The notes below the pieces were generated by a model. The model saw only the letters and a list, made by a program, of their open reading frames with translations, made no database searches and was not told the origin of the DNA. Positions 1,624-38,794 of a stretch of 64,000 bases of DNA are shown here, piece by piece. This stretch comes from an uncultured Bacilli bacterium. Lineage in GTDB: Bacteria > Bacillota_I > Bacilli_A > RF39 > UBA660. Numbering within the stretch: position 1 is the first letter of the stretch; the number at the start of each line of letters is the position of its first letter. The position numbers and the translations under genes are program-made. The stretch is from NCBI GenBank assembly GCA_934119965.1, contig CAKOTA010000006.1, positions 3,933 through 67,932 of the forward strand. Reading direction: 5' to 3'.

Positions 1624-1844
1624 TGTCACCAATACAAAATGCTAATTACAATCACGAAAATTCAGGTGTTAAATTACCTGTTGATGAATTACTAGTTAGT
1701 TCTTGTAATTATGGAAAAATGACTGTTGAACAACAAGAACAATATAAATTATGGGCTAGTATGAGTAGAGAAAATGCAAACAATAAATTAGTTCAATTAA
1801 TAGAACAAGAAATAATGAATAAAAAAATGAATAATATAAAATAG
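1623..1844 (+). CDS. Hypothetical small protein (73 aa)
   Basis: The ORF overlaps the upstream stop (TAATG). No motif recognised. Confidence 0.35.
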   Translation: MSPIQNANYNHENSGVKLPVDELLVSSCNYGKMTVEQQEQYKLWASMSRENANNKLVQLIEQEIMNKKMNNIK

Positions 1845-1911
1845 CTATATAGCTTTTTTTTAATGTTTAATTTATCTTGAATGATTGATTAAAATATGAT
1901 ACTATGTATAT

Positions 1912-2028
1912 AGATGAGTGATACTCATATAATAAAAAAGGATATATCTAATTGCTCAAAGAGTTAGATACATTCCAAGTTTTTTTGAAAAGCACTATCC
2001 CCCTGTGATAGTGCATATTTTATTATTT
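1912..2028 (+). ncRNA. Candidate antitoxin sRNA (copy 1), ~115 nt, convergent with and overlapping the 3' end of the toxin mRNA
   Basis: Promoter is TTGAAT (1877-1882), a 17-nt spacer, then TGaTACTAT (1897-1905). Two internal hairpins are ATGAGT/ACTCAT and TATCTAA/TTAGATA. The intrinsic terminator GCACTATC-CCCCTGT-GATAGTGC (1992-2014) is followed by a T-rich tract. Ends are approximate. Confidence 0.55.
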
Positions 2029-2100
2029 ATACAATAATGTAATTATTATAAAAAATAATAGGAGTATTATTAAAAATAAAGATTTTTCTCTTTCTTTCAC
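2023..2100 (-). CDS. Candidate type I toxin, 25-aa hydrophobic peptide (copy 1): MKEREKSLFLIILLLFFIIITLLYK
   Basis: GTG start lies 4 nt after AGAAGGAGGTGG. There is a charged N-terminus, then an uninterrupted hydrophobic helix and a C-terminal YK. The ORF is conserved in all three repeat units. Confidence 0.6.
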   Translation of the reverse strand: MKEREKSLFLIILLLFFIIITLLYK

Positions 2101-2259
2101 AATACCACCTCCTTCTTTGAAGAAGGAATGCACTAACACCAATTAAATATATCGATTAATATTTTACTATAAATTTAATTATTTTTATCTAGTTTTTAAC
2201 ATACAAATTCCGACAAAAATCATCTTGAATGATTAATTAAAATGTGATATCATGTATAT

Positions 2260-2373
2260 AGATGAGTGATACTCATATAATAAAAAAGGATATATCTAAT
2301 TGCTCAAAGAGTTAGATACATTCCAAAGTGTTTTGGTTTGCACTATCCCCCCTGTGATAGTGCTTATTTTATT
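2260..2373 (+). ncRNA. Candidate antitoxin sRNA (copy 2)
   Basis: Promoter is TTGAAT (2225-2230), a 17-nt spacer, then TGaTATCAT (2245-2253). The same hairpins and terminator are present (2340-2363 plus T tract). Confidence 0.55.
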
Positions 2374-2449
2374 ATCTATACAATAATGTAATTATTATAA
2401 AAAATAATAGAAGTATTATTAAAAATAAAGATTTTTCTCTTTCTTTCAC
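2372..2449 (-). CDS. Candidate type I toxin peptide (copy 2), ends ...LLYR
   Basis: Same ORF as copy 1. The only differences are one synonymous change (CTC to CTT) and a conservative K to R at the last residue, consistent with selection on the peptide. Confidence 0.6.
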   Translation of the reverse strand: MKEREKSLFLIILLLFFIIITLLYR

Positions 2450-2608
2450 AATACCACCTCCTTCTTTTAAGAAGGAATGCACTAACACCAATTAAATATA
2501 TCGATTAATATTTTACTATAAATTTAATTATTTTTATCTAGTTTTTAACATACAAATTCCGACAAAAATCATCTTGAATGATTAATTAAAGTGTGATATT
2601 ATGTATAT

Positions 2609-2724
2609 AGATGAGTGATACTCATATAATAAAAAAGGATATATCTAATTGTTCAAAGAGTTAGATACATTCCTAGGTTTGTTTAGGAAAGCACTATCCC
2701 CCCTGTGATAGTGCTTATTTTATT
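2609..2724 (+). ncRNA. Candidate antitoxin sRNA (copy 3)
   Basis: Promoter is TTGAAT (2574-2579), a 17-nt spacer, then TGaTATTAT (2594-2602). The terminator is at 2691-2714 plus T tract. Confidence 0.55.
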
Positions 2725-2800
2725 ATCTATACAATAATGTAATTATTATAAAAAATAATAGGAGTATTATTAAAAATAAAGATTTTTCTCTTTCTTTCAC
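2723..2800 (-). CDS. Candidate type I toxin peptide (copy 3), ends ...LLYR
   Basis: Same ORF, RBS and start as copies 1 and 2. Confidence 0.6.
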   Translation of the reverse strand: MKEREKSLFLIILLLFFIIITLLYR

Positions 2801-2995
2801 AATACCACCTCCTTCTTTGAAGAAGGAATGCACTAACACCAATTAAATATATCGGTTAATATTCTACTATAAATTTAATTATTTTTATCTAGTTTTTAAC
2901 ATACAAATTCCGACAAAAACCAATGAATAGGTTTAACTATAAATAAATATAGTTATTTTTTTTAAAATATGGTATAATTTTGGAAGGTGATTAAA

Positions 2996-4642
2996 ATGGA
3001 TGAAAGAAAACAATTAGCAAACCTAATATTTCCAAATATTGATAAAACAATAGAAGATTATAAAAAAATGTATCCTGAAAGAAATATAGAAGGTAGTGTT
3101 ACAAGATTTGCACCTTCTCCTACAGGTTATATGCATTTAGGTGGATTTTATCAAGCAATAATAGACTATGTAATTGCTAAAAACACAAATGGAATATTTT
3201 ACTTAAGAAATGAAGATACTGATCAAAAAAGAGAAGTAGAATCTGCGGTAGAATTAATTATGTCTACACTAAAACACTATGATGTAATACCTAGTGAATA
3301 CGAATATGAAGGAAAAATAATAGGAGAATATGGGCCTTATATTCAAAGTGAAAGAAAAGAAATTTATCATACTTTTATTAAATATTTAATTGAAATTGAT
3401 AGAGCCTATCCTTGCTTCTGTTCAAAAGAAGAATTAGATGAAATAAGAGAAACTCAAGAGGGCGGTAAAAAAAGAACCGGTTATTATGGAAGATATGCTA
3501 AATGTAGAAGATTATCAACTAATGAAATGATTGAGAGAGTAAAAAAAGGAGAACCTTATGTTATTAGATTTAAATCATTAGGTAACTTTGAAGAAAAATT
3601 TAACTTTGATGATTTAGTAAGAGGAACAATCCAACTTCCACAAAATGATCAAGATATAGTTATTATGAAATCAGATAATAAACTTCCAACATATCATTTT
3701 GCTCATATAGTTGATGACTATTTAATGCATACAACTCATGTTGTAAGAGGAGAAGAATGGTTACCTTCAGTACCAATTCATATTGAATTATTTGAAGCTT
3801 TTGGATTTACTCCTCCAAAATATGTTCATACACCTTTAATTGTAAAAAAAGAAGGAAATAGTGTAAGAAAAATAAGTAAAAGAAAAGATCCTGAAGCAAG
3901 TATGAGTTATTATGATGAGTTAGGCTATCCAAAAGAAGCAGTAATTGAATCATTGATGACAATTATCAATTCAAACTATGAAGAATGGCATAGTGCTAAC
4001 CCAGACAAAAAATTTACAGAATTTGAATTTAATCCTAAAAAAATGAGTGCTACAGGTGGTGCTTTATATGATATCGAAAAATTAAATAATATTTCTAAAA
4101 ATATCATTAGTAGATTTAGCGCTGAAAAAGTTTTCGATGAATTAAATGAATGGACTAAAAAATATGATTTAGAATTCAATAAATTAATAAATAAAAATAA
4201 AGAATATACAATAAATATTTTAAACATTGAAAGAGTTCAAAATAAACCAAGAAAAGATTATGAAAATTATTCGTGTATCAAAGATAAAATATGGTATATG
4301 TATGATGAATTATATACACCAAATGAATATGAATTTCAAAAAATAACTGATAAAAATGAATTAAAAAATATATTTGATAATTACTTGGAAATATATAGTG
4401 AATCAGATGATAAAGAAACTTGGTTTAATAAAATAAAAGAATTATGTGATAAATTAGGTTATGCTTCTGATATGAAAGCTTACAAACAAAATCCCGATAA
4501 TTTTAAAGGAAATGTAGCTGATATATCAACTGCTATCAGAGTAGGGGTTACATCTAAATCACAAACACCTGATTTATATGAAATATTAAAACTATTAAGT
4601 TATGACAAAATAAAAGTTAGATTTGAAAAAGCTATACAATAA
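2996..4642 (+). CDS. gltX: Glutamate--tRNA ligase
   Basis: Class I motifs: PSPTGYMHLGG (HIGH-like) and KISKRK (KMSKS-like). The ATG at 2996 follows GGAAGGTGA, and a TGgTATAAT promoter lies at about 2969. Confidence 0.85.
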   Translation: MDERKQLANLIFPNIDKTIEDYKKMYPERNIEGSVTRFAPSPTGYMHLGGFYQAIIDYVIAKNTNGIFYLRNEDTDQKREVESAVELIMSTLKHYDVIPSEYEYEGKIIGEYGPYIQSERKEIYHTFIKYLIEIDRAYPCFCSKEELDEIRETQEGGKKRTGYYGRYAKCRRLSTNEMIERVKKGEPYVIRFKSLGNFEEKFNFDDLVRGTIQLPQNDQDIVIMKSDNKLPTYHFAHIVDDYLMHTTHVVRGEEWLPSVPIHIELFEAFGFTPPKYVHTPLIVKKEGNSVRKISKRKDPEASMSYYDELGYPKEAVIESLMTIINSNYEEWHSANPDKKFTEFEFNPKKMSATGGALYDIEKLNNISKNIISRFSAEKVFDELNEWTKKYDLEFNKLINKNKEYTINILNIERVQNKPRKDYENYSCIKDKIWYMYDELYTPNEYEFQKITDKNELKNIFDNYLEIYSESDDKETWFNKIKELCDKLGYASDMKAYKQNPDNFKGNVADISTAIRVGVTSKSQTPDLYEILKLLSYDKIKVRFEKAIQ

Positions 4643-4760
4643 AGTATAGTTTTTTTGAATAAATGATTAACTTTATTAACAATATATAATGTAAAGTAAA
4701 ATTACTTTCCTTGATTATATTGGCAATATATAGTAAAATTATTATGAGGATGTGTATAAA

Positions 4761-6140
4761 ATGATTGATATACAAAGTGATTCAAGAAAAATTAAACAAG
4801 GTGATACTTTTATTGCTCTAAGAGGAATTAGTAGCGATGGACACGATTACATTTATAAAGCAATTGAAAATGGTGCTACTAAAATAATTGCTGAAGAGGG
4901 TAATTATCCTGTTGAAACAATAATAGTACCAGACACAAGAATATATTTAAATGAATATTTAGCAGGACATTATAATTCTAAAATAAGTGAAATGAATATT
5001 ATAGCTATAACGGGAACAAATGGTAAAACAACAACTGCTAAGTTAATTCACGATAGTTTAAATATGTTAGGATCTAAAACTGCTTATATCGGAACAATTG
5101 GTTTTTATATGGGTGAAAAAGTTTGTAGTCTTCCTAATACAACTGTTGACATTTGTGATACATATGATTTATTAATGAAAGCTTATGATGCTGGATGTAA
5201 TAATGTTGTAATGGAAATAAGTAGTCATGCTGCAAGTATGGGAAGAATTGAAACTTTAGAATTTGATTATGCGATATTTACTAATCTAACTCAAGATCAT
5301 TTAGATTATCATAAAACAATGGGAAATTATGCGTTAGCAAAACAAAAAGTATTCGAAAAACTAAAATATGGTGGGACTGCTATCATTAATAATGATGATA
5401 AATATAAAGAATATTTCTTATTAGATAAAAATAAAAATATTACTTATGGATTTAATGAAGCCGATTATCAAGTTTTAGATTATGCTATGACATATGATAG
5501 TTCTTTATTTACTTATAAACATAATGAAGAAAACTATCAAATTCATTCATTATTACTTGGAAAATACAATATATATAATGTTTTAGCTGTTATATCTTTA
5601 TTATCTGAAATGGGTGTAAAATATGAACAAATTCATGAAGTAATTTGTAAATTAAAAGCCCCAGTCGGAAGAATGGAAATTATAAGACATAATAATAACA
5701 TTATAGTAATTGATTACGCTCATACACCTGATGCTATTGAAAAAGTTATAAATGCTGTAAAGGAAATAACTGATGGTGATATTTATGTTGTATTTGGTTG
5801 TACTGGAGATAGAGATAGAATTAAAAGACCTATTATGACTGATATAGTAGCTAAAGCAAGTAAATATTTTATCATTACTAATGATGATCCTCATTATGAA
5901 GAACCAGCTGAAATAGTTGATGATATGGTTAAAGATTTAGAATTGAACAATTATGAGGTATTGTTAGATAGGGAAGAAGCTATAGTTAAAGGTATATCTT
6001 TATTAAAAGAAAAAGATGCTTTGTTAATATTAGGAAAAGGTCATGAAGAATTTATGATTATTAAAGACAAAAAAGTTCCATTTAATGACCGAAAAGTAGT
6101 AGAAAATACTTTATCTGCTTTGAAAGTAGGTGAAGAATAA
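4761..6140 (+). CDS. murE: UDP-MurNAc-L-Ala-D-Glu:diamino acid ligase MurE
   Basis: Mur ligase P-loop GTNGKTTT and MurE-like layout. The position of the DNPR motif reads DDPH. Confidence 0.85.
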   Translation: MIDIQSDSRKIKQGDTFIALRGISSDGHDYIYKAIENGATKIIAEEGNYPVETIIVPDTRIYLNEYLAGHYNSKISEMNIIAITGTNGKTTTAKLIHDSLNMLGSKTAYIGTIGFYMGEKVCSLPNTTVDICDTYDLLMKAYDAGCNNVVMEISSHAASMGRIETLEFDYAIFTNLTQDHLDYHKTMGNYALAKQKVFEKLKYGGTAIINNDDKYKEYFLLDKNKNITYGFNEADYQVLDYAMTYDSSLFTYKHNEENYQIHSLLLGKYNIYNVLAVISLLSEMGVKYEQIHEVICKLKAPVGRMEIIRHNNNIIVIDYAHTPDAIEKVINAVKEITDGDIYVVFGCTGDRDRIKRPIMTDIVAKASKYFIITNDDPHYEEPAEIVDDMVKDLELNNYEVLLDREEAIVKGISLLKEKDALLILGKGHEEFMIIKDKKVPFNDRKVVENTLSALKVGEE

Positions 6141-7132
6141 TGTTAGTTTTAGCTAAGGCTATGTTATCATTGATGATTGGATTTGTTTTATCAATCATTT
6201 TGGGATTAGTTTTAATACCTTTTTTGAAAAGAATAAAGGCTAAGCAAAGTATAAGCATATTTTTAAGAAATAAGCATAAAGAAAAAGAAGGAACTCCTAC
6301 TATGGGAGGTATAATCTTTATTCTTTCTACAATTTTAACGATGATTTTATTAATTGTAACGAAAAAAATAGAATATTCTAGTAATTTATTTTTGATTATG
6401 TTTGTTTTCGTGGCATATGGAATACTAGGATTTATTGATGATTATTTAATTATTAAGAGAAGAAATAATATAGGACTTACAGAAATTCAAAAACTATTTG
6501 GTCAATTAGTTATTGCTCTTGTATTTTTCTTTATTTATATGAAAGCAGGGCACAGTTCTGTATTTGAAATTCATACTTTAAATATTAGTATTGATTTAAA
6601 ATGGTTTTTTGGAATATTTATTTTATTTATGCTAGTAGCAAGCACAAATGCTGTAAATATTACTGATGGCTTAGATGGTTTAGCGGGAGGATTGTCCTTG
6701 ATTGCTTTTCTAGCTATGGGGTTAATTACTTGGAACACAACATGGATTACTGGTAATACTGATATAGCTATATTTTGTTTTATTTTAGTTGGTTCATTGT
6801 TAGGATTTTTATTTTTTAATACATATCCAGCTAAGATATTTATGGGTGATACTGGTAGTTTAGCTTTAGGTGGTACTTTAGCAGCTATTGCTATTCTAAC
6901 AAAACATGAAATAACTTTTATAATAATAATGGGAGTATTTATCATAGAAACATTAACTTCTATAATTCAAATGTGTTCCATTATGTTATTAGGAAAAAAA
7001 GTATTCTTGATGACACCTTTACATCATCATTTCGAAAAATTAGGAATTGATGAAAGAGATATTGTTAAATCATTTTGGGTAGTAGGATTAATTCTTGCTA
7101 TGGCAGGAATTTTATTTGCTGTATGGATTTAG
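6140..7132 (+). CDS. mraY: Phospho-N-acetylmuramoyl-pentapeptide transferase
   Basis: Polytopic membrane protein with NAVNITDGLDGLA and MGDTGSLALGG motifs. The start overlaps the murE stop. Confidence 0.9.
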   Translation: MLVLAKAMLSLMIGFVLSIILGLVLIPFLKRIKAKQSISIFLRNKHKEKEGTPTMGGIIFILSTILTMILLIVTKKIEYSSNLFLIMFVFVAYGILGFIDDYLIIKRRNNIGLTEIQKLFGQLVIALVFFFIYMKAGHSSVFEIHTLNISIDLKWFFGIFILFMLVASTNAVNITDGLDGLAGGLSLIAFLAMGLITWNTTWITGNTDIAIFCFILVGSLLGFLFFNTYPAKIFMGDTGSLALGGTLAAIAILTKHEITFIIIMGVFIIETLTSIIQMCSIMLLGKKVFLMTPLHHHFEKLGIDERDIVKSFWVVGLILAMAGILFAVWI

Positions 7133-12744: not shown

Positions 12745-12821
12745 GGTCCGTTGGTGAAGTGGTTTAACACGTTGCCCTCTCAAGGCAATATTCATGAGTT
12801 CGAACCTCATACGGATCACCA
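12745..12821 (+). tRNA. tRNA-Glu (anticodon CUC)
   Basis: Hand-folded cloverleaf: acceptor GGTCCGT/ACGGATC, anticodon stem TTGCC/GGCAA with loop CT-CTC-AA, T arm ATGAG-TTCGAAC-CTCAT, encoded CCA. A TGtTATAAT promoter is at 12727-12735. A hairpin terminator AAATCAATA/TATTGATTT plus T run follows. Confidence 0.85.
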
Positions 12822-12863: not shown

Positions 12864-12937
12864 GCCAATTTAGTTTAGTGGTAAAACAAATCCCTCGTAA
12901 TGATTAGAGATAAGTTCGATTCTTATAATTGGCACCA
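12864..12937 (+). tRNA. tRNA-Thr (anticodon CGU)
   Basis: Hand-folded: acceptor GCCAATT/AATTGGC, anticodon loop CT-CGT-AA (one C-U mismatch at the base of the anticodon stem), T arm ATAAG-TTCGATT-CTTAT, encoded CCA. Confidence 0.8.
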
Positions 12938-28904: not shown

Positions 28905-29040
28905 TTAGATTGTTCGTGAAAAAATATGTACCGTAGACAGTAGGAGCAAACAAGGCTTAATTACCTACCGAGGACTTTATAATAAAGATCTTTGGTCCCT
29001 TACTGTAATTAAGTAAGGGATTTTTTACGGAATAAAACTT
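28905..29040 (+). promoter_or_regulatory. Probable L10 (rplJ) leader with attenuator hairpin
   Basis: Structured leader ending in CCCTTACT/AGTAAGGG (28997-19) plus a T6 run, immediately before the rplJ RBS. The position matches the Firmicute L10 leader. Confidence 0.45.
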
Positions 29041-38703: not shown

Positions 38704-38794
38704 GGAGTAGTACTCAAGAGGCTGAAGAGGCGCCCCTGCTAAGGGTGTAGGTCGGGCAACTGGCGCGGAGGTTCAAATCCTCTCTACTCCGCCA
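38704..38794 (+). tRNA. tRNA-Ser (anticodon GCU)
   Basis: Acceptor GGAGTAG/CTACTCC, anticodon loop CT-GCT-AA, long variable arm, T loop TTCAAAT, encoded CCA. Confidence 0.85.

Follow-up and report, generated by a model that had tools for sequence, protein, structure and literature searches.

Candidate type I toxin-antitoxin-like modules in a tandem array upstream of gltX in an uncultured AT-rich Bacilli bacterium

What is encoded by three nearly identical DNA units that lie head to tail just upstream of gltX, the glutamyl-tRNA synthetase gene, in an uncultured Bacilli bacterium? We addressed this question in a stretch of 64,000 nucleotides (contig CAKOTA010000006.1 of assembly GCA_934119965.1, positions 3,933 to 67,932), referred to here as the window, which has a GC content of 25%. 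A preliminary description of this DNA had proposed that each unit is a type I toxin-antitoxin (TA) locus, with a gene for a small hydrophobic peptide convergent with a gene for an antisense RNA that overlaps it at the 3' end. Our analysis led to a similar view. We think it likely that each 349-bp unit is a self-contained type I TA-like module of a previously undescribed and fairly widespread family, where "type I TA" is inferred from anatomy and conservation.

The array and its two convergent genes

Positions 1874-2922 of the window consist of three head-to-tail units of 349-351 bp (unit 1, 1874-2222; unit 2, 2223-2571; unit 3, 2572-2922). Tandem Repeats Finder reported 3.0 copies with a period of 349 bp and 95% matches at 1874-2919, and the mean column identity of the three aligned units was 97%, in agreement with the earlier claim of three tandem units of about 350 bp. 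Variation between units was concentrated in the spacer of the antisense promoter, in hairpin loops, and in a linker of about 15 nt before the antisense terminator. As had been claimed, there was more variation outside the peptide open reading frame (ORF) than within it. The array is flanked by a 73-amino acid (aa) ORF (1623-1844, + strand) and gltX (2987-4642, + strand), in a neighborhood of core genes (era, recO, murE, and mraY). No further copies of the module were found elsewhere in the 64-kb window using BLAST and a covariance model.

On the minus strand of each unit, AGAAGGAGGTGG is followed by TATT, a GTG start codon, and an ORF of 25 codons. The ORFs are at 2023-2100 in unit 1 (GTG start, VKEREKSLFLIILLLFFIIITLLYK plus stop codon), 2372-2449 in unit 2 (VKEREKSLFLIILLLFFIIITLLYR plus stop codon), and 2723-2800 in unit 3 (also VKEREKSLFLIILLLFFIIITLLYR plus stop codon). 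With the start residue included, the window peptide is (V/M)KEREKSLFLIILLLFFIIITLLY(K/R), and the product of the 25-codon ORF can be written VKEREKSLFLIILLLFFIIITLLY(K/R). The three ORFs differ only by a synonymous leucine codon (CTC/CTT) and a Lys/Arg replacement (AAA/AGA), exactly the one synonymous and one conservative difference reported before. The peptide starts with a polar segment (MKEREKS), continues as a hydrophobic helix of 17 residues, and ends in Lys or Arg. It thus has the properties expected of a type I toxin: a small hydrophobic peptide (less than about 60 aa) with one predicted membrane helix and a conserved ORF.

The plus strand of each unit has a promoter-like string, TTGAAT, 17 nt, and TG-n-TA(C/T)(T/C)AT, and then about 115 nt that form three hairpins; this part of the original observation holds. 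The putative antisense promoters are at 1877-1905 in unit 1 (TTGAAT, 17 nt, TG-A-TACTAT), 2225-2253 in unit 2 (TTGAAT, 17 nt, TG-A-TATCAT), and 2574-2602 in unit 3 (TTGAAT, 17 nt, TG-A-TATTAT). Promoter-like hexamers were not enriched in the 25% GC DNA of the window (15 found compared to 18 expected), and because of this the assignment of these promoters rests on their conservation in relatives (below). The predicted antisense small RNAs, which are the candidate antitoxins, are at 1906-2030 (about 115 nt, terminator at 1992-2014 plus U-run), 2254-2379 (terminator at 2340-2363; fold z-score of -3.4), and 2603-2730 (terminator at 2689-2716).

The last antisense hairpin, GCACTATC / GATAGTGC, is followed by a T-run that overlaps the stop codon of the ORF. 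A GC-rich stem with a U tract reaching the peptide stop codon had been described, and we found it in each unit; a scan detected three terminator-like sites on the plus strand compared to 0.3 expected. It had also been suggested that the two transcripts share this hairpin as a bidirectional terminator. We found the terminator U-run on the antisense-RNA strand only, and the peptide strand lacks a U-run in most copies and relatives. Because the U-run follows on one strand only, the hairpin is not bidirectional. The remainder of the proposed type I architecture, namely the membrane-peptide ORF, the convergent 3'-overlapping antisense RNA, and the masked Shine-Dalgarno sequence (SD), is supported by the comparison with relatives. 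Because the terminator ends on the stop codon, the predicted antisense RNA is fully complementary to the 3' untranslated region (UTR) of the peptide mRNA. It is not complementary to the SD or the start codon. As in type I systems, the predicted RNA would base-pair with the putative toxin mRNA.

The leader of the peptide mRNA contains a hairpin, CCTTCTT-(C/A)AA-AGAAGG, whose 3' arm begins the very strong SD, AGAAGGAGGTGG. In the window module, the leader is 53 nt, the SD is masked by the upstream CCUUCUU anti-SD, and the 3' UTR is about 90 nt. The mRNA of unit 1 is predicted to span 1934-2153 on the minus strand, with both ends inferred and the 3' end at a run of six U residues (U6). It has a -10 sequence, TAAAAT, at 2161-2166, the SD at 2105-2116 (whole SD region, 2105-2126), the anti-SD hairpin CCTTCTT-CAA-AGAAGG at 2111-2126 (SD unpaired probability 0.2-0.3), and the 5' and 3'-UTR arms of a long-distance pairing described below at 2125-2153 and 1941-1976. 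The corresponding minus-strand features are at 2282-2502 (mRNA; fold z-score of -5.5), 2510-2515 (-10), 2454-2465 (SD), 2460-2475 (anti-SD hairpin), and 2474-2502 and 2289-2324 (5' and 3' arms) in unit 2, and at 2631-2853 (mRNA), 2861-2866 (-10, TAGAAT), 2805-2816 (SD), 2811-2826 (anti-SD hairpin), and 2825-2853 and 2638-2673 (5' and 3' arms) in unit 3.

Conservation of the module in relatives

We searched sequence collections using exact patterns and word-indexed profiles. All of the relatives came from metagenome assemblies. Twelve lineages were examined in full, five of the window type and seven distant, and eleven were folded for the antisense RNA. An exact look-up of the neighboring protein found the locus in human-gut metagenome assemblies only, including those from Hadza samples. 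In a pattern scan of one genome per GTDB species, the module was found only in the metagenome-assembled genome (MAG) CAKPKR01, an uncultured Bacilli bacterium from Hadza samples. The other five matches (Caulobacteraceae, Chryseobacterium, Falkowbacteria, Regnicoccus) were chance matches to the SD hairpin with no similar ORF and were discarded. Copies of the module that were 82-90% identical were found at four sites other than gltX. One of these, L014, is a solitary copy at another locus of the same MAG and is 90% identical. Its differences are nearly all in the two promoter regions, the hairpin loops, and the short linker, and its ORF is identical except for ATG in place of GTG. The solitary module of L014 lies beside genes (4377-6245) for what we take, by eye from the translations, to be SpoIID-like and SpoIIID-like proteins, and this 25% GC Bacilli lineage may form spores.

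The number of units at the gltX site varies between strains. Contigs that are about 97% identical have one (L019), two (L001, L002, and L016), or three (the window) units. The second unit of L001 (b) is a hybrid, with its left part from window unit 2 and its right part from unit 3, the pattern that unequal crossing-over would be predicted to produce. Exchanges of this kind between units would account for both the tandem arrangement and the variation from one to three copies. Tandem triplication had been called unusual in the preliminary description. Tandem duplication is instead a recognized hallmark of type I loci: it is found in ibs/sib, ldr/rdl, zor/orz, and fst, and it served Fozo et al. 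(2010) as a criterion for finding such loci (PMC2887945). The 73-aa ORF upstream of the array overlaps, start codon to stop codon, with a 187-aa ORF (1060-1623, + strand). Both ORFs are kept in all same-species contigs, and neither has a Pfam match on record.

More distant members of the family were found by searching with the peptide. A degenerate DNA pattern based on the peptide matched copies of the module in metagenome contigs L017, L018, and L020; these copies are 82-86% identical and represent three other contexts. When the 39-aa frame was used as query in an all-against-one HMMER search, three predicted proteins were retrieved. A profile search, of the kind proposed in the preliminary description, then yielded about 30 metagenomic family members, whose C-terminal 25 residues are MTKRExSxFIIILLLFFIVITLLF(K/R). 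Gene callers list them (P0001-P0030; for example, L022, 3001-3207) as proteins of 43-102 aa with spurious upstream starts. The N-terminal parts, such as DTFENISDAFPF, are the translated mRNA leader, and the motifs DTFENISDAFPF, DTFENIRCFPF, and KYQMLSLS represent one leader read in different frames. Therefore, the callers over-extended the ORF, and the real product would be the C-terminal 25 residues. In the DNA of the seven distant relatives, the modules are in different intergenic regions of AT-rich genomes, and the module geometry was identical in all 12 lineages. The ORF, the two promoters, the three antisense hairpins, and the place of the terminator have been kept across these lineages, and the sequence between them has diverged. 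Scans of viral contigs with conserved blocks of the module gave no match. A protein word-index search with the 39-aa frame also gave no match, not even to the query itself. In one lineage (L029, 738-2587; L030, 688-2537), the module adjoins a 77-aa ORF, an IS110-family transposase gene, and a gene with a SymE_toxin domain (PF08845). This neighborhood may be a small island of toxin-like genes.

The preliminary description had made its proposal depend on whether the ORF is kept in homologous repeats of relatives. The ORF was exactly 25 codons in 11 of the 12 lineages, which had leaders of 53-70 nt and 3' UTRs of 87-96 nt. An SD was present 6-8 nt before ATG or GTG in every lineage, and the start codon alternated between GTG and ATG. 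In L002, both copies have ATG at the position of GTG, which supports the proposed start codon. Replacements in the ORF were conservative (L/I/V/F/M, S/T, and K/R), and pairwise differences summed by codon position were 363/186/408. The median ratio of nonsynonymous to synonymous substitution rates (dN/dS) was 0.35 for the 12 lineages and 0.2-0.27 inside the window clade. When we simulated random mutation with the observed number of substitutions, the open frame and hydrophobic core were kept in 9-11% of trials per lineage. Some copies are inactivated: unit a of L002 has a GAA to TAA change at codon 3 (approximately 3880-3888, - strand), L025 (2076-2168) has lost the stop codon (five additional residues) and has a degenerate SD, and some database entries of the family are frameshifted. 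From these observations, we conclude that purifying selection acts on the ORF as a coding sequence, with moderate constraint.

The antisense RNA gene is also conserved. In its promoter, information across the 12 lineages peaks at -35 (TTGAA), at -15/-14 (TG), and at -10 (TAnnAT). The spacing is exactly 17 nt in 11 of the 12 lineages, and the spacer sequence has diverged. All eleven of the folded lineages have the same plan: a helix P1, an A-run, a helix P2, a variable linker, and a terminator hairpin with a U-run abutting the stop codon. The helices differ in sequence between lineages yet still pair. Variants of P1 are AUGAGU/ACUCAU, GUGAAG/CUUCAU, AUG-CAAG/CUUG-CAU, and UCAAA/UUUGA; those of P2 are UAUCUAAUU/AGUUAGAUA and CAUUUGAUU/AAUCAGAUG; and those of the terminator are GCACUAUC..., CAUCUGAAAUCAAC..., and GGCAUCUG...CACC. 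In the window clade, it is mainly the loops, and not the stems, that hold the variable columns (Fisher p = 8e-4). The three changes in the P1 stem all produce G.U pairs if the plus strand is transcribed, whereas the opposite strand would have A.C mismatches.

The linkers (1974-1991, 2323-2339, and 2672-2688) vary far more than any other part of the unit; no two copies or strains have the same one, and insertions and deletions are found in them. The linker of about 15 nt is either unconstrained or a discriminator between copies. We had considered it as a co-varying hairpin, "P3". Seven variants folded at 0 to -6 kcal/mol with z-scores of +0.7 to -2.0, and we now regard the linker as unconstrained or hypervariable. 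A long helix between the A-run and the terminator U-run that was proposed by RNAalifold was dropped as a poly-A / poly-U artefact.

The relatives also helped to place the 5' end of the peptide mRNA. Distant relatives have a consensus promoter (in L022, TTGATA-17-TATAAT) 6-8 nt before a conserved G(G)AUACAUUUGA. The homologous -10 sequence in the window is TAAAAT or TAGAAT and is followed by GAUAUAUUUAAUUG. Because the homologous relatives have consensus promoters, we placed the probable start of transcription, and thus the 5' end of the window mRNA, at the GAUAUAUUUAAUUG site.

Pairing between the ends of the peptide mRNA

Over its first approximately 30 nt, the peptide mRNA is complementary to its own distal 3' UTR, whose end is ...CAAUUAGAUAUAUC-C-UUUUUU in the window clade and, in the other lineages, ...UCAAAUGUAUCC-UUUUUU. 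A repeat finder detected this as an inverted repeat of 27 nt, 78% complementary, with arms 186 nt apart. This 5'-3' closure was present in the minimum-free-energy fold of all 12 lineages, with pair probabilities of 0.75-1.0. The energy of the cognate 5'/3' duplex was -21 to -39 kcal/mol, compared to -8 to -12 kcal/mol for shuffled sequences (z-scores of -5 to -12). Duplexes between the 5' arm of one clade and the 3' arm of another averaged -19 kcal/mol, compared to -29 to -31 kcal/mol within clades, a cost of approximately 10 kcal/mol. In a 12-bp helix (helix A), two pairs change on both sides between clades (U-A to C-G and A-U to G-C), with wobble intermediates in L029. By inspection, helix B behaves likewise (UUCC/GGAA to UCCC/GGGA, and UUAG/CUAA to UCAG/CUGA). 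The predicted closure is therefore a long-distance interaction with covariation, of the type known from hok/Sok and aapA/IsoA.

The 3' arm of the closure is the exact complement of P2 of the antisense RNA. It follows that the antisense RNA would compete with the mRNA 5' end for one segment. Folding predicts that the SD and start codon are largely base-paired in every lineage; SD unpaired probabilities were 0.12-0.30 without constraint and 0.04-0.31 when the 3' UTR was blocked. In all lineages, the predicted mask of the SD is a local anti-SD. Local SD hairpins alone folded no better than shuffled sequence. Contact of the 3' arm with the anti-SD is limited to the first 2-4 nt of the latter; L022, in which the anti-SD is covered, is the exception. 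The 3' UTR of L022 (3206-3300) contains CCAGAAAGGGAG, a mimic of the SD region that is able to pair with the whole anti-SD (UUCCCUUUCU). In L022, in contrast to the window clade, closure would release the SD from local masking. The role of the closure might be stability, silencing of the mRNA, or control of access by the antisense RNA.

Alternative explanations, known systems, and a possible mechanism

We considered three other explanations for the array. The comparative evidence shows that the ORF and antisense RNA are conserved, and not that the peptide is toxic. The ORF could encode a conserved small membrane protein with a physiological role, such as modulation of a transporter or sensor, the level of which is tuned by a cis-antisense RNA, with no TA pair. 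The modules are in intergenic regions of core genes and not on phages or plasmids, and the peptide does not match any toxin family, which favors this reading. It is less easily reconciled with the multicopy status, strain-variable tandem number, and scattered paralogues, which are typical of type I toxins and not of housekeeping small proteins (PMC2887945), or with the inactivated copies (the nonsense codon in L002, and the lost stop codon and decayed SD in L025). In addition, repression is predicted to be layered, through masking of the SD and start codon, through the 5'-3' closure, and through a strong antisense promoter, which suggests expression that needs to stay off. On balance, we consider a physiological small protein improbable, though a serious alternative.

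An explanation with no peptide at all seems considerably less probable. The unit could be a non-coding repeat, either a structured RNA pair or an element like a miniature inverted-repeat transposable element (MITE) with internal inverted repeats, in which the frame is open by chance or because of AT-rich composition. Our estimate from base composition is that, at 25% GC, chance alone would leave a frame of 25 codons open about 10% of the time; the unit does hold a co-evolving inverted repeat, and the module is found at many unrelated sites, one of them beside an IS110 transposase. However, the ORF stays at 25 codons up to about 35% ORF divergence while insertions and deletions are common elsewhere in the module, the start codon is always 6-8 nt past the SD, and substitutions are conservative and hydrophobic with a deficit at the second codon position. 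The inverted repeats are internal, at the two transcript starts, and they are not terminal repeats because homology extends past them over both promoters. No target-site duplications were seen. The position of the array, immediately upstream of gltX, also raised the possibility that it is a triplicated cis-regulatory leader (a T-box or attenuator). Aminoacyl-tRNA synthetase genes in Firmicutes often carry T-box leaders, and one is present upstream of pheS in the related organism L022 (5750-5950). This possibility is refuted by the distribution of the module, which is found at at least 10 sites unrelated to gltX and in one, two, or three copies at the gltX site in different strains, and we give it almost no weight. 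The array has no T-box or other Rfam match, the plus-strand RNA would stop at a strong terminator about 600-900 nt before gltX, and gltX has its own extended -10 promoter at approximately 2957-2975. The site itself, TTTTAAAATATGGTATAAT (2957-2975, + strand), is promoter-like, lies directly after the array, and is not associated with a T-box leader.

Several points weigh against a type I TA module. All of the evidence is in silico and from metagenome assemblies, and no resemblance to a known type I family was found for the peptide or for the RNA. With a dN/dS of 0.35 across 24 codons, constraint is only moderate, and the antisense stems of the window clade are nearly invariant, with no two-sided covariation within the clade. 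The peptide-mRNA promoter of the window clade is weak (-10 TAAAAT with a poor -35). The 3' end of the mRNA is non-canonical, with the U6 run 4-5 nt past a weak AT-rich stem and missing in L026, and the length of the overlap with the antisense RNA is therefore an estimate. Blocking the 3' UTR in silico barely altered SD accessibility, and folding gives no support for an effect of the antisense RNA on translation. Lastly, small hydrophobic peptides generally tend to be toxic when overproduced, and for this reason even an observed toxic effect would say little in favor of a TA role.

Database searches placed the module outside the named families, as had been claimed for the peptide. Comparison of the peptide with Pfam, NCBIfam, PADLOC, PHROGs, and the PDB gave no match at E up to 10, and there was no profile match to the named toxin families (TxpA/BsrG, Fst/Ldr, Hok, TisB, Ibs, and others). 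Searches of the literature with peptide strings gave false matches only. Rfam holds 13 type I antitoxin RNA families (PMC8594479). None matched in the window at the gathering score, and nothing relevant was found at E up to 10 in 1700-3100 or at E up to 1 in nine related loci. Elsewhere in the window, there is a ribosomal protein L10 leader at 28913-29035 (+ strand; Rfam RF00557, 74.8 bits), and there are plus-strand tRNA genes for tRNA-Glu(CTC) (12745-12821), tRNA-Thr(CGT) (12864-12937), and tRNA-Ser(GCT) (38704-38794).

The layout of the module is that of Gram-positive type I systems. In every Gram-positive type I pair, the antisense gene is located 3' of the toxin gene and the two transcripts share an overlap at the 3' end (PMC8594479, PMC4147584). 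We found this layout, known from TxpA/RatA, BsrG/SR4, BsrE, YonT, and SprG/SprF, in all 12 lineages, with a predicted extent of overlap. Features shared with txpA/RatA and bsrG/SR4 of B. subtilis (and bsrE/SR5 and yonT/SR6) are convergent genes with a 3' overlap of about 75-120 nt, an RNA that lacks complementarity to the SD and start codon, an SD that is partly in a local stem, and a low-GC Firmicute host. The modules differ from these systems in having no similarity in peptide or RNA sequence, in an overlap that halts at the stop codon, outside the ORF, in being in core-gene intergenic regions rather than prophage or skin elements, and in the conserved 5'-3' closure of the toxin mRNA. The window peptide is 25 aa with a single Lys/Arg end and not a long charged tail; txpA/bsrG-type toxins are 38-59 aa. 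RatA acts through decay by RNase III and leaves the ribosome-binding site untouched, and SR4 additionally remodels the ribosome-binding-site stem (PMC4147584). Decay by RNase III, with or without such remodelling, would be expected here as well (PMC4147584).

Other features are shared with systems outside this group. The hok and aapA mRNAs use 5'-3' long-distance interactions (PMC6733600). Like hok/Sok (plasmid R1 and enterobacteria) and aapA/IsoA (Helicobacter pylori), the module has a closure supported by covariation and several chromosomal copies, some of them inactivated (PMC6733600). In hok and aapA, the SD is sequestered by the 3' end itself, translation is activated by 3' processing, and the 5' region or ORF of the processed mRNA is the target of the antisense RNA, whereas in the window module a local anti-SD is predicted to mask the SD and the antisense RNA would target the 3' arm of the closure. 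The module has no mok-like leader ORF, unlike hok/Sok, and no sequence similarity to hok/Sok or aapA/IsoA. As in par (fst RNA I/RNA II of Enterococcus faecalis pAD1), convergent transcripts meet at a terminator hairpin and the peptide is small with a single helix, and tandem chromosomal copies are found in the Fst/Ldr superfamily, there in streptococci (PMC2887945). The par terminator is bidirectional, whereas the hairpin in the window terminates the antisense RNA only. In par, complementarity between the 5' regions of the two RNAs comes from direct DNA repeats, and the RNAs interact there and block translation. The repeats in the window are inverted, and therefore the two RNAs are alike and the toxin mRNA would pair with itself. 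Models of Fst/Ldr-type toxins gave no Pfam match and no Rfam match. Like E. coli Ibs/Sib and Zor/Orz, the module encodes a very short hydrophobic peptide. Ibs and Zor toxins are roughly 18-29 aa. Tandem loci in one intergenic region, in strain-variable number, are also a shared feature (PMC2887945). The Gram-negative layouts are different, with Sib spanning the whole ORF and Orz 5' of the ORF, and there is no sequence similarity to the window module. The best reading of these comparisons is a new family inside the known type I kind, with a layout like that of RatA and SR4 and a predicted 5'-3' lock like that of hok and aapA.

If each unit is a type I TA module, it might work as follows. The plus-strand extended -10 promoter, stronger than that of the peptide, would drive an RNA of about 115 nt. 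The full-length peptide mRNA would be closed by 5'-3' pairing with its SD and start codon masked, and little peptide would be made. The antisense RNA would pair along about 90 nt of the 3' UTR, in competition with the mRNA 5' end, and the long duplex would be cut by RNase III, leading to decay of the mRNA by analogy with txpA/RatA and bsrG/SR4. If the antisense RNA is unstable and is lost, the peptide would enter the membrane and arrest growth. Tightening of the SD stem upon binding of the 3' UTR, as for SR4, was set aside, as the change in silico was negligible. A more specific and rather doubtful idea is that the antitoxin RNA acts by competing for the 3'-UTR segment and not at the translation start: it would open the closure and make the 3' UTR a substrate for RNase III, and the closure would shield both ends of the mRNA and keep it stable but silent. 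If this is true, then the module would combine the locked mRNA of hok and aapA with the 3'-end decay of RatA, a hybrid control for which we found no description for Gram-positive type I systems in the literature searched. The hypervariable linker could then set which antisense RNA recognizes which tandem copy.

The finding is incremental for the field rather than surprising. It would extend the type I repertoire by one peptide family and one RNA family, both new, from uncultured and very AT-rich gut Bacilli in which type I systems are essentially unannotated and in which the peptide ORF is missing from, or mis-called in, protein databases. The twelve lineages provide a comparative set for the RNA-level mechanism, including promoters, three hairpins, a terminator, and the co-varying closure. 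The feature that merits experimental attention is this 5'-3' closure, which the candidate antitoxin would target.

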